Shown piece by piece: positions 26,418 through 29,050 of a DNA stretch of 64,000 nt; within the stretch, counting starts at the first letter, position 1, and every line of letters begins with the position of its first letter. The notes below the pieces were generated by a model. That model was not told the DNA's origin. It did not search any database and saw only the letters and a program-made list of their open reading frames with translations. The translations under genes and the position numbers were made by a program. The DNA comes from an uncultured Syntrophaceae bacterium. GTDB lineage: Bacteria > Desulfobacterota > Syntrophia > Syntrophales > UBA2185. The stretch is from positions 6,011 to 70,010 of the forward strand of contig CAZMBE010000012.1 of assembly GCA_964564625.1 (NCBI GenBank). Direction: 5' to 3'.

Positions 26418-27023
26418 TTGAAACTTATAGTCGGGCTTGGAAATCCTGGTTTTAAGTACCAGGCCACAAGACACAATATTGGCTTCCTTGCCCTTGATAA
26501 GATTGCTGATACCTATGGCATCTCTATAATCATGAAAAGCTTTAATTCCTGCGTTGGAAGAGGCAAGATCGGTGATATTCCGGTTTTACTGGCCAAGCCA
26601 CAGACTTTCATGAATTTAAGTGGTGTTTCAGTAAGAAAGTGTTCAGATTATTATAAAATTGATCTTGCAGATTTGATTATAGTTCATGACGACATTGATC
26701 TTCCGTTTGGAATGATACGAATAAAAGCTGGCGGAGGCCATGCGGGACACAAAGGCTTAATCTCGATAATAGAATATTTAGGCAATGCGGAATTTATCAG
26801 GTTGAGAGTTGGCATAGGGAAACCGCCTGATAAGTCACTGGTAGAAAAGTATGTTCTTGAAACATTCACTGATGAAGAAGTGAAACTGCTTCCCTTCATT
26901 ACCAACACAGCAAGTAATGCATTAACGGCAATTATTGTGTCTGGTATTCAAGCTGCCATGAACCAGTACAACTGCAAAGGCACTAATCAATCCGCCAAAG
27001 GAGATGATACTCTGCCCTGCTGA
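26418..27023 (+). CDS. pth: Peptidyl-tRNA hydrolase
   Basis: LIVGLGNPG..TRHNIGF, AKPQTFMNLSG, VHDDIDL, GHAGHKGL, RLRVGIG; TTG start. Confidence 0.96.
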   Translation: MKLIVGLGNPGFKYQATRHNIGFLALDKIADTYGISIIMKSFNSCVGRGKIGDIPVLLAKPQTFMNLSGVSVRKCSDYYKIDLADLIIVHDDIDLPFGMIRIKAGGGHAGHKGLISIIEYLGNAEFIRLRVGIGKPPDKSLVEKYVLETFTDEEVKLLPFITNTASNALTAIIVSGIQAAMNQYNCKGTNQSAKGDDTLPC

Positions 27024-27179: not shown

Positions 27180-28274
27180 ATGGGATTTCGATGCGGCATT
27201 ATAGGACTTCCGAACGTTGGGAAATCCACTATTTTCAATGCCCTCACGGCCGCAGGCGCTGAGGTTGCCAACTATCCCTTCTGCACTATTGATCCAAACA
27301 TAGGAATTGTACCTGTACCTGACGCAAGACTTGAAACAATCGCGAAAATCATAAAACCTCCCAAGATTACTTACACCACTATAGAATTTCTCGATATAGC
27401 CGGTCTTGTGAGGGGTGCAAGCCGGGGGGAAGGATTGGGAAACAAGTTTCTCGGACACATCAGGGAAGTCGATGCCATTGTGCACATTGTTCGATGCTTT
27501 GACCATCCCTCTGTTTCCCACATATACGGAGCTGTCGATCCCGCCCGCGACATAGAGATAATAAATACCGAATTAATCATTGCTGATTTAGAAACAGTTG
27601 AAAAGAGGATTGCAAAGATCGAAAGGCTTGCAAAAACGGGAGACAGGCTCGCCCGTAAAGAGTTCGACATATGTCTCCATATCAGGGATACTCTGGGAAA
27701 GGGTACCCCTGCACGTAAAAGTATTTTTTCATTGGAAGAGCAACATACCCTTAGCGACCTCCACCTGCTGACAGTTAAAAAAATTCTGTACGTTGCGAAT
27801 GTCAGTGAGGCTGTCCTTAAGGGAAATAATGACTATATTAAGAAAGTAGAATTAATAGCAGAGCAGGAAGGCTTGAAGGTAATCGTCATATGCGGTGATC
27901 TGGAAGCTGAAATAGCAGAACTTCCAAAGGAAGAACAGAGAGAATTTATTCGTGATCTCGGTCTTCAGGAATCTGGTCTCCAGAAATTAATAAAAGAGGG
28001 CTATGAGCTTTTAGGTTTGATTACTTTTTATACTACCGTCGGAACAGAACTTCGGGCCTGGACGATTCCCGACGGAACAAAAGCTCCCGCAGCAGCGGGA
28101 AAAATACATGGAGATATGGAACGAGGTTTTATCAAAGCTGAAATTATTCATTATAACGAATTTATTAAAATTGGCAGTTTGTCAAAAGCGAAAGAACATG
28201 GACTCATTCACTTAGAAGGGAAAGACTATATCCTGCAGGACGGTGATATTGCCTTTTTTCGGTTCAATGTATAA
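27180..28274 (+). CDS. ychF: Redox-regulated ATPase YchF
   Basis: GIIGLPNVGKST, ANYPFCTIDPN, DIAGLVRGASRGEGLGNKFL, GKIHGDMERGFIKAE. Confidence 0.97.
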   Translation: MGFRCGIIGLPNVGKSTIFNALTAAGAEVANYPFCTIDPNIGIVPVPDARLETIAKIIKPPKITYTTIEFLDIAGLVRGASRGEGLGNKFLGHIREVDAIVHIVRCFDHPSVSHIYGAVDPARDIEIINTELIIADLETVEKRIAKIERLAKTGDRLARKEFDICLHIRDTLGKGTPARKSIFSLEEQHTLSDLHLLTVKKILYVANVSEAVLKGNNDYIKKVELIAEQEGLKVIVICGDLEAEIAELPKEEQREFIRDLGLQESGLQKLIKEGYELLGLITFYTTVGTELRAWTIPDGTKAPAAAGKIHGDMERGFIKAEIIHYNEFIKIGSLSKAKEHGLIHLEGKDYILQDGDIAFFRFNV

Positions 28275-28304
28275 ATATTTGTCGGAAGTTACCGTCTTTT
28301 GAAC

Positions 28305-28448
28305 AAAATAAAAGTGGATGGTTAAAGGAGGGAAAACAAACCATCCACCTCTATGTAAACTGAAAGGGACCATACATGCTCGTCCTCTTCAGATTATCTG
28401 TTCAGGGGGCCGGTGGATGGCAAAGGAGGGAATGGAAACCACCCACCG
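28305..28448 (-). ncRNA. Three-hairpin cassette with two anti-SD (CCCUCCUUU) loops ending in a U-tract; candidate sRNA/3'UTR
   Basis: Hairpins at 28314-28348 (perfect 10 bp), 28361-28391 and 28411-28448 (9/10 bp); on the minus strand hairpins 1 and 3 have CCCTCCTTT in the loop; TTTTATTTT follows the last hairpin. Confidence 0.55.
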
Positions 28449-28484
28449 ATTTAACATCAGAAAAACTTTCCAACGTCAGCAGGA

Positions 28485-28742
28485 CTAATCCTCGTGGATA
28501 AAAAAGTCAGGAAGAAAAAAAGTCTTACTTTGGTCTTCTGTAGCTTCTTCTTGTTCCTTTTTCCTTGGTTTTAGTACGGATAATTTTTTTTCTATATTTT
28601 CATTACTCGGTGTAATGAAAAAATCATATTCAAAACCGTATTCATCATTACCGAAATCCGCATCTGGCAAGGAATCTTCCAGACCTTTTGTTTTTTTTAT
28701 TTTATCTTTGCGGTGTTTCCCCTCCTTCTTCATGGAACACAT
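28485..28742 (-). CDS. Orphan small charged protein (85 aa), downstream of sigma54 promoter
   Basis: Open frame; Lys-rich ends, acidic/aromatic core (EYGFEYDFF, TFFLPDFF); no clear RBS upstream of the ATG. Confidence 0.4.
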   Translation of the reverse strand: MCSMKKEGKHRKDKIKKTKGLEDSLPDADFGNDEYGFEYDFFITPSNENIEKKLSVLKPRKKEQEEATEDQSKTFFLPDFFIHED

Positions 28743-28869
28743 TGCCGTTATTGAATATCAATTTTAAGAGACCTCTGAGATCTACCTTTCATATATGCTC
28801 TATCGGCTATTATTCCTAAAGGTCTCTTACGTTCTCGAGAGGTCTCTTATTAAAACTGTTGTTTCTATA

Positions 28870-28887
28870 TTGCAATATTACTGCCAC
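28870..28887 (-). promoter_or_regulatory. sigma54 (-24/-12) promoter
   Basis: Minus strand GTGGCAGTAATATTGCAA = TGGCA-G-N5-TTGCA with exact GG-N10-GC spacing. Confidence 0.8.
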
Positions 28888-29050
28888 TTTTATTTAGAAT
28901 TTTATATTTTGCGTACACACATACCCCAATTCTCCTATATGTACATCAATAACAACTAGTTATATTTTTATTTTAAAAACTATAATATTGTGGTGGGGCT
29001 ATAAGCATAATGTAAAGCATAGGGTTTCACAGGCTTTTTCATACAATGAT

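Follow-up and report, generated by a model that had tools for sequence, protein, structure and literature searches.

What is encoded by the run of hairpins that separates a small open reading frame (ORF) from the convergent ychF gene in contig CAZMBE010000012.1 of an uncultured Syntrophaceae bacterium? The 64-kb stretch of this contig that was analysed (hereafter, the window) had received a first-pass annotation made from the letters alone, in which tandem hairpins with loop-exposed anti-Shine-Dalgarno (anti-SD) motifs were proposed as a candidate small RNA (sRNA). The analysis presented here suggests that the hairpin RNA is probably an undescribed regulator of translation. Judging from the conserved promoter and ORF that precede them, the hairpins are the untranslated 3′ region (3′UTR) of an mRNA for a small protein, rather than a gene standing alone or a repetitive extragenic palindromic (REP) element.

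Structure and Strand of the Hairpin Element

Three hairpins, designated hairpin C, the middle hairpin and hairpin A in the 5′ to 3′ direction of the minus strand, were found where the first-pass annotation had placed them, and their sequence is as it had been described (coordinates are given in Table 1). A fourth one, hairpin 0 (28477–28453), had not been mentioned there. The loops of hairpins C and A both contain UUCCCUCCUUU, which is a copy of the anti-SD end of 16S rRNA, the hairpin between them is free of this motif, and the last stem is followed by UUUUAUUUU. Folding of the 210-nt intergenic stretch gave −71.2 kcal/mol for the minus strand (z, −4.91; none of the 200 shuffled sequences as good) and −58.1 kcal/mol for the plus strand (z, −1.57; 14 of 200 as good), which agrees with the minus-strand RNA proposed earlier. 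One G–U pair of hairpin C becomes A–C on the plus strand. Moreover, G–U pairs are frequent across the alignment of related loci described below, and at two positions of the middle helix they outnumber every other pair (A–C on the plus strand); thus, the strand is the minus one. With the covariance model R1, built from this alignment, the minus strand reaches 162 bits and the plus strand 26 bits.

The 21-nt motif of stem plus loop occurs once in the 64 kb (expected, 0.01), and the covariance model detects one copy in the window, the next best score being 15 bits. The hairpins are therefore not a dispersed REP within the window. Since exactly one copy per Syntrophales locus was detected by the model in the 8-kb loci as well, and every copy with upstream sequence has the same promoter, a dispersed intergenic repeat was rejected as an explanation.

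Hairpin A is a G+C-rich stem followed directly by the U-run, as in intrinsic terminators, and a T-run is found 3′ of it in 32 of the 32 aligned loci. The terminator scan missed this hairpin because it accepts loops of 3–8 nt only, and the loop of hairpin A comprises 15 nt. The search against Rfam returned two tRNAs and nothing at the hairpins when the whole window was searched at the gathering score, and noise only, with no match to the hairpin element or the leader, when positions 28100–28900 were searched at E-values up to 10. Two mechanically called ORFs of 56 aa (28318–28488, plus strand) and 53 aa (28212–28373, minus strand) overlap the hairpins and have no support as genes.

Related Loci

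A fetch by protein only yielded 16 loci (L001–L011, L166–L168) with 12 distinct RNA sequences plus the window, and this set is unbiased with respect to the RNA. Wherever the contig reaches, the protein-selected loci consist of the gene for a sigma54-dependent activator, the small ORF, a spacer of ~210–295 nt and a convergent ychF, and the spacer of all of them harbors hairpin C, the middle region and hairpin A. The DNA pattern of hairpin A matched 34 stretches in species-representative genomes, 25 of them in metagenome-assembled genomes (MAGs), L043 (see below) included, of Syntrophales, Syntrophaceae or ‘delta proteobacterium’. The remaining nine (Halobacillus, Ilyobacter and others) are single, lack a second hairpin and fail the covariance model, and were discarded as chance matches. 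A loops-only pattern applied to metagenomes gave 120 matches, about 25 of which are true members, the rest being mostly CT-rich low-complexity DNA.

Three kinds of loci were distinguished by tblastn: the window type, paralogs with an ORF ~40% identical (MEKEEKKQ...FFLPDFFTDET) and other neighbours, and copies whose ORF is absent, internally deleted or a remnant. The last kind includes L033, L045 and L058 (no ORF), L034 (internal deletion, which has also removed the AAGGAGG site discussed below), and L024 and L038 (remnant only); the hairpins are kept in all of them. In total, the promoter-to-terminator layout was found in about 55 distinct Syntrophales loci, often two per genome, and seven MAGs carry two copies at different places. 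The deltaproteobacterial affiliation assumed in the first-pass annotation is thus borne out by the relatives, which are Syntrophales MAGs.

Diverged subfamilies were also recovered. L091, L086, L107 and L151 have a diverged stem, GGUGGGUGG/CCACCCACC, and a small ORF that is shorter or altered (...EYEFFVS...DQSASFFLSE), and keep the sigma54 promoter and the anti-SD hairpins. L149 and L097 share the stem GGUGGGUGG/CCGCUCACC; in L097 (8186–8523) three tandem anti-SD modules, each with a C8–C9 run, are followed by a motif-free terminator hairpin, and the upstream ORF is diverged, ending in ...EFFLSDLSGD, L149 being a relative. L138 has a different leader, a diverged ORF with AFFLS and DFFLTEF, and no AAGGAGG after the AUG, and the hairpins are kept; no −24/−12 match was found upstream in L138. 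The ORFs of the L091 and L149 subfamilies are likewise diverged, and the leaders of the L091 and L149/L097 subfamilies differ from those of the main group, within which the leader and usually the ORF recur.

One of the 25 genome-derived members, L043 (JAAXUP010000222.1), is a 2.2-kb contig that carries the activator, the small ORF, the hairpins and ychF and is labelled as part of a Eubacteriaceae MAG; given identities to the window of 93% (activator) and 84% (ychF), it is probably mis-binned. Three further metagenome contigs (L055, L087 and L095) belong to another, unrelated repeat family, whose tandem units contain TTCCCTCCTTT and, a few bases further on, its complement AAAGGAGGG and a GGGAGGATT-like sequence.

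Covariation and Conservation

An alignment of 32 distinct sequences was used for the structure check and for the covariance model, and was later enlarged to 54 distinct sequences. RNAalifold missed the middle hairpin on the MAFFT alignment owing to a one-base register shift, and the hairpin was recovered by a manual structure and model alignment. The three-helix structure is paired in 94.9% of cells in the 32 sequences, with 8 compensatory pairs, and in 94.3% in the 54 sequences, in which 11 pairs change on both sides (64 cells); none of the 500 shuffles reached these values, and slid controls of the alignment were paired at 36–60%. The stems thus covary in relatives. In hairpin C, 98.9% of cells are paired, with G–C to A–U swaps in 20 sequences and A–U to G–C swaps in six. 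The middle hairpin is paired in 86% of cells and shows compensatory change at four pairs, and hairpin A is paired in 98%, its closing pairs covarying (A–U, G–C, U–A). A U–A to C–G double change in hairpin A distinguishes L033 from L045, which indicates that the hairpins are maintained even without the ORF.

Identity of orthologs to the window amounts to 75–96% for the 3′ element, 65–98% for the leader, 63–91% for the ORF and 47–83% for the DNA upstream of the promoter. Judged by these comparisons, selection acts on the RNA itself. Of the 32 aligned loci, all of which had been chosen without regard to the hairpin-C loop, 30 carry its core CCCUCCUUU, and throughout the members the loops read CCCUCCUUU, with the exception of two variants, CUCCUCCUUUU and CUUCUCCUUUU. 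Both CCCUCCUUU loops are unchanged in the protein-selected loci, even at 44–46% protein identity, so the claim that the loops are exposed and conserved is upheld. In the paralogs, a helix between the C-rich linker and GAGAGGGGG can form in place of the middle hairpin, and the linker is lengthened to C8–C9 after each module in L097 and L149.

Transcription Unit and Small Protein

The hairpins had been suggested to derive from the 3′ end of a sigma54 transcript. This part of the first-pass annotation did not stand: the upstream 710-aa gene codes for a sigma54-dependent activator (GAF–AAA+–HTH), not for sigma54, and processing from its transcript is contradicted by a separate conserved promoter (28886–28872) and by the 82-aa ORF in between. 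The promoter has the −24 GG/−12 GC spacing of sigma54 promoters, and candidate upstream sites and the gene of an enhancer-binding protein, whose binding is predicted, lie next to it. Scanning of the window for −24/−12 elements gave results at chance level (4 found vs. 3.8 expected), so the weight of this match comes from its conservation: TGGCA-N6-TTGC is present in 35 of the 35 related loci with upstream DNA, and in three further loci. The distance from this element to the hairpin-A loop is 514–555 nt where the ORF is full (474 nt in L035, the ORF of which is interrupted by N), and shrinks to 293–371 nt in loci with an absent, reduced or interrupted ORF. Transcription would start near 28861.

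In nearly all loci whose upstream DNA is long enough, palindromes of the form GTGC-N7-GCAC are located at about −170/−182 and −230/−270 relative to the −24 element, and these fixed offsets hold in all three locus types. By this conservation, the promoter and the palindromes define one transcription unit, and the loci probably form one regulon served by the GAF activator through the predicted sites. The scores of the activator are below every equivalog cut-off in NCBIfam (NifA, 373 vs. 529; NorR, 311 vs. 476). The layout of palindromes and promoter presumably resembles the three GT-N7-AC sites of NorR-type promoters, the activator itself being below the NorR cut-off.

The predicted transcript begins with a structured leader, whose identity to orthologs exceeds that of the ORF and which is kept even in ORF-less copies. 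In helix P1 of the leader (alignment A3, 29 sequences), a compensatory G–C to A–U change was observed in three sequences and a U–A to U–G change in 11. Complementarity was also noticed between the leader tract AUGAAAGG and the middle hairpin's CCUUUCA arm. A separate sRNA gene with a sigma70 promoter just 5′ of the hairpins was considered and rejected, as the consensus scan is at chance level there and the region differs between locus types.

The search with the small ORF returned 31 homolog clusters (44–100% identity), and the named sources are Syntrophaceae MAGs. The protein has 19 invariant columns, including EYGFEYDFF and DQSKTFFLPDFF.HED, and the EYGFEYDFF block of the window and that of L010 differ by synonymous codons. 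The start of the ORF is fixed by a stop codon directly 5′ of the ATG in several loci. On this evidence, the small ORF is a real gene. No family was found for its product in Pfam and NCBIfam, and AlphaFold modelling on the 31-sequence alignment gave a low-confidence result (pLDDT, 60; pTM, 0.13), i.e., disorder is predicted for the protein, whose N-terminus is rich in Lys and Arg and which contains two invariant aromatic-acidic motifs.

Start Region and Loop Complementarity

No SD sequence was found upstream of the ATG in any of the 23 distinct ORF starts. Instead, AAGGAGG is found at +6 to +12 in all 23 (in three of them with AAGGGAGG); codon 4 is always GAG, and at codon 3 the three AAGGGAGG loci have AGG and all others AAG. 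The possibility that this tract serves a downstream start codon was rejected, since no ATG, GTG or TTG is within reach in any frame. Within the upstream RNA of every ORF-bearing transcript, neither loop has a better predicted partner than AAGGAGG (−14 to −24 kcal/mol). In the window, the predicted duplexes of 11–15 bp amount to −17.7 kcal/mol with loop C and −24.2 kcal/mol with loop A (15 bp). Among 51 start regions crudely called in the window, the own tract is the strongest partner of loop A (−23.7), and no other start region is better than −18.9 with either loop. When the predicted 558-nt transcript is folded, the tract is paired to the loop-C sequence, its probability of staying unpaired being 0.05. 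Both sides are changed in L038, where loop C reads CUUCUCCUUUU and the 5′ tract reads AAAGGAGAAGA, with an 11-bp match. Thus, the strongest predicted partner of the loops is a site in their own mRNA, not a ribosome-binding site in trans, and the cis interaction with codons 3–5 is well supported by prediction and conservation.

Table 1. Features of the hairpin locus and of its neighbourhood in the window.
Feature	Position	Strand	Remarks
pth	26418–27023	+	
ychF	27180–28274	+	TIGR00092, 469 bits; convergent with the hairpin unit
Hairpins, whole region	28304–28477	−	Between the stop of the small ORF and the ychF stop
U-run UUUUAUUUU	28313–28305	−	3′ of hairpin A; read as intrinsic terminator tail
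Hairpin A	28350–28312	−	AGGUGGAUGGUU, loop with UUCCCUCCUUU, AACCAUCCACUU; stem of 11–12 bp, (A)GGUGGAUGGU/ACCAUCCAC(U); doubles as terminator stem
Middle hairpin CUGAAGAGGAC...GUCCCUUUCAG	28392–28360	−	Loop without anti-SD motif
C-rich linker GCCCCCUGA	28402..28410	−	(A/G)CCCCCUU in most loci; nearly invariant
Hairpin C	28448–28411	−	10-bp stem CGGUGGGUGG/CCAUCCACCG; 18-nt loop UUUCCAUUCCCUCCUUUG at 28438–28421
Hairpin 0	28477–28453	−	Just 3′ of the ORF stop; only in window-type loci, absent from paralogous loci
82-aa ORF	28733–28485 (including stop)	−	MKKEGKHRK...EYGFEYDFF...DQSKTFFLPDFFIHED
SD-like AAGGAGGGG at codons 3–5	28719..28727	−	Complementary to both hairpin loops
Structured 5′ leader	28766..28848	−	P1 GAGACCUC/GAGGUCUC encloses P2 CCUUU/AAAGG; same predicted transcript
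Sigma54-type −24/−12 promoter TGGCAGTAATATTGC	28886–28872	−	Canonical spacing TGGCAC-N5-TTGC
Three GTGC-N7-GCAC palindromes	29156–29142, 29136–29122, 29068–29052 (TGTGCGAATGTCGCACA)	−	Candidate enhancer sites (upstream activating sequences)
710-aa sigma54-dependent activator	31306–29174	−	GAF, Sigma54_activat, AAA_lid_14 and HTH_8 domains
EF-G	33439–31406	−	Full length, 950 bits; directly upstream of the activator

Comparison with Known Systems

According to the literature (PMC4615179, PMC8034643), CcsR sRNAs originate in the 3′UTR of an mRNA for a small protein, and their loops bear anti-SD motifs. The likeness to the cuckoo/CcsR family is extensive: a small protein gene and two to four adjacent hairpins in one transcript, the same C/U-rich anti-SD motif in every loop, compensatory variation in the stems, a terminator hairpin that closes the unit, control by an alternative sigma factor, and several copies per genome, with a varying number of hairpins and some copies without the small gene (PMC4615179, PMC8034643). 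As in cuckoo (RF02344), the loops of one element share a motif, two such hairpins being present in the window and three in L097. However, the loops here read CCCUCCUUU and those of cuckoo CCUCCUCCC; RF02344 gave no match over 28100–28900 at E-values up to 10 and none at the gathering score across the window; the small protein has no Pfam or NCBIfam match and is not a DUF1127 protein, as it would be in CIN1 loci; the promoter is of the sigma54 type with an enhancer-binding activator, in place of RpoHI/HII; and the lineage is Syntrophales, in place of Alphaproteobacteria. A further difference is the motif-free hairpin with a C-run between the modules. Because the loop motif, the RF02344 result, the protein, the sigma factor and the lineage all differ, the element is, as far as can be judged from sequence, an analogue and not a member of the cuckoo family.

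In RNAIII of Staphylococcus, which encodes delta-haemolysin, an RNA of several hundred nucleotides likewise encodes a small peptide and has 3′ hairpins with C-rich loops that bind the SDs of targets (PMC4615179); no sequence or Rfam relationship exists, and RNAIII differs in its UCCC loops, its agr P3 promoter and its occurrence in Firmicutes. The first-pass annotation had drawn the parallel to both cuckoo/CcsR and RNAIII, and it proves closer than first thought, because the element is also the 3′UTR of a small-protein gene.

The 3′UTR of icaR from Staphylococcus aureus pairs with the SD of its own mRNA (PMC3868564). Here, too, a C/U-rich 3′UTR motif is complementary to an SD-type sequence at the start of the same mRNA, and the predicted long-range pairing sequesters the initiation region (PMC3868564). 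Unlike in icaR, the purine tract lies after the AUG (codons 3–5) and not before it, two or three copies of the motif stand in hairpin loops, and ORF-less copies exist.

Repeated C-rich regions that pair with G-rich SDs are also known from RsaE/RoxS of Firmicutes (PMC6158497, PMC5419742) and may be compared with the C-run (CCCCC to C9) found here, but RsaE/RoxS are short stand-alone sRNAs without an ORF, with other promoters and no homology. The Qrr/LuxO system of Vibrio resembles the locus in its −24/−12 regulatory RNA gene beside the gene of an enhancer-binding protein and in its several paralogous copies (10.1101/2021.07.01.450815). Both Qrr and Pxr differ from the element in being short and non-coding, with other seeds and structures, and no Rfam match to either was obtained here. 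Pxr of Myxococcus is a sigma54-dependent sRNA encoded beside its activator.

Proposed Function

What has been computed for the locus comprises the strand, structure, conservation and covariation of the RNA, the promoter and enhancer sites, the occurrence of several copies per genome and of copies without an ORF, and the complementary match between loops and start region. In view of these data we lean, with moderate confidence, towards a sigma54-controlled dual-function RNA that would pair in cis with its own start region and occlude ribosome-binding sites in trans. The transcript itself, its pairing in cells, its trans targets, its processing and the signal of the activator are parts of this model that we infer. 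A minus-strand transcript of ~560 nt would start at the sigma54 promoter and would be activated from the GTGC-N7-GCAC sites by the GAF-domain activator encoded just upstream. It would consist of the structured leader, the 82-aa ORF, and two anti-SD hairpins with the C-rich linker and the spacer hairpin between them, the second anti-SD hairpin acting also as the terminator. The loops would base-pair with purine-rich SD-like tracts, first of all with AAGGAGG at codons 3–5 of the own ORF and of the paralogs, and through this cis pairing the small gene may be coupled, in its translation or stability, to the state its 3′UTR is in, as happens in icaR. Whether the RNA is full-length or a processed 3′ fragment, its loops may in addition occlude the ribosome-binding sites of other mRNAs, as in CcsR/cuckoo and RNAIII.

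Several points weigh against the dual-function model. All members are known from MAG or metagenome sequence alone. A mimic of the 16S anti-SD end would match almost any strong SD, which leaves target specificity unexplained. The genome-derived and metagenome-derived sets had been retrieved with loop patterns, which makes conservation of the loop circular, for hairpin A in the former and for both loops in the latter, and the unbiased evidence is confined to the protein-selected loci and to hairpin C of the genome-derived loci. The stem core GGUGGAUGG/CCAUCCACC is conserved far beyond the needs of pairing, and its near-invariance could mean recognition by a protein. The comparison of start regions covers 64 kb and was made with a crude gene caller, and co-variation of loop and site rests on a single locus, L038. 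Finally, the subfamily of L091, L086, L107 and L151 has a different leader and no AAGGAGG after the AUG, so cis pairing is not universal.

This subfamily also weighs against the possibility that the 3′UTR acts purely in cis, its loops pairing with their own AAGGAGG only, closing the mRNA into a loop and setting the translation or decay of the small-protein message. In favour of this possibility, no better partner than the own site is predicted in any ORF-bearing transcript or among the start regions of the window; the full-length fold has this site paired, its nucleotides are fixed, loop and site have changed together in L038, and icaR provides a precedent (PMC3868564). Cis action is nevertheless not likely to be the whole function, because the hairpins are kept under structural constraint in copies without the ORF and the tract (L033, L045 and L058), the motif is repeated, two to three identical loops facing one site, and the number of modules varies; L034, moreover, has lost the site by deletion and retained the hairpins. 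We thus regard an exclusively cis-acting element as unlikely.

A role as a protein-binding RNA (a sponge, scaffold or processing signal that would not act through base pairing, recognised, e.g., by the peptide's own basic N-terminus, by an RNA chaperone, by RNase III or by a factor associated with the ribosome) would account for a stem conserved more strictly than pairing demands, 5 of the 11 hairpin-A pairs being invariant in 54 sequences. The small protein co-encoded with CcsR binds the CcsR RNA (PMC8034643), and the predicted disorder, the basic N-terminus and the two aromatic-acidic motifs of the peptide would suit such a role. On the other hand, no RNA-binding domain is detectable in the peptide with Pfam and NCBIfam, ORF-less copies exist, and the stem changes are compensatory with the loop kept, as expected if the loop is the working part; this explanation appears distinctly improbable.

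That the element is an ordinary terminator or stability element, possibly bidirectional with convergent ychF, and the loop sequence functionless, is very improbable. Hairpin A with its U-run is a textbook intrinsic terminator located ~40 nt past the ychF stop, but a terminator does not need two hairpins with identical 11-nt loops, and yet these are constant across paralogs whose proteins are ~40% identical; in addition, different genes flank the paralogous loci, conservation of the element exceeds that of the coding region, and the plus strand has no U-run after the stem.

CsrA binds GGA motifs in hairpin loops. The plus-strand reading of the first-pass annotation, a CsrA-binding sponge of CsrB/RsmY type with AAGGAGGGA loops, can practically be dismissed: such GGA loops are found on the plus strand only, where the fold is hardly better than that of shuffled sequences (z, −1.6), the frequent G–U pairs turn into A–C mismatches, the model scores 26 bits vs. 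162 on the minus strand, and neither covariation, promoter nor terminator lends support, the promoter, the ORF and the U-run all being on the minus strand.

Gene Neighbourhood and Possible Signal

In several other window-type loci, the position of EF-G is occupied by the genes for a cNMP-binding protein and an ion channel. The paralog unit is divergent from cytochrome bd oxidase genes (Cyt_bd_oxida_I and II, cydAB-like) in L012, L014, L022, L034 and L042. Usp and/or cNMP-binding neighbours are found in L023 and L033, the former also having a second sigma54 activator. It can be speculated that the GAF domain of the activator and these neighbours hint at a redox, oxygen or second-messenger input.

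An extension of the dual-function model would be a Syntrophales sigma54 regulon of multi-copy dual-function RNAs, each with a disordered peptide of 80 aa and a 3′ anti-SD mimic, that serves as a switchable brake on translation initiation: the mimic would be held on its own post-AUG tract, freed by translation or processing, and would titrate strong ribosome-binding sites across the cell. We consider this extension doubtful. Given the GAF activator and the copies near genes for cytochrome bd oxidase, Usp and cNMP-binding proteins, such a brake may respond to redox or oxygen stress.

Biological Significance

Smithella- and Syntrophus-type organisms are slow-growing syntrophs that take part in the breakdown of fatty acids, aromatics and alkanes in methanogenic systems, and no description of regulatory RNAs in Syntrophales (Syntrophus, Smithella) was found in the searchable literature. 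The hairpin family is absent from Rfam; the CcsR/cuckoo-like layout itself is already known from Alphaproteobacteria. The locus constitutes a complete module, with activator, enhancer sites, sigma54 promoter, leader, small protein and anti-SD hairpins. A fixed AAGGAGG just after the start codon, with no SD upstream, is unusual and offers a clean system for the control of initiation by a 3′UTR. The combination of a small protein gene with a 3′UTR of repeated anti-SD hairpins has arisen in an unrelated lineage with another protein, another motif and another sigma factor, and the same layout in the two lineages therefore points to a general design.

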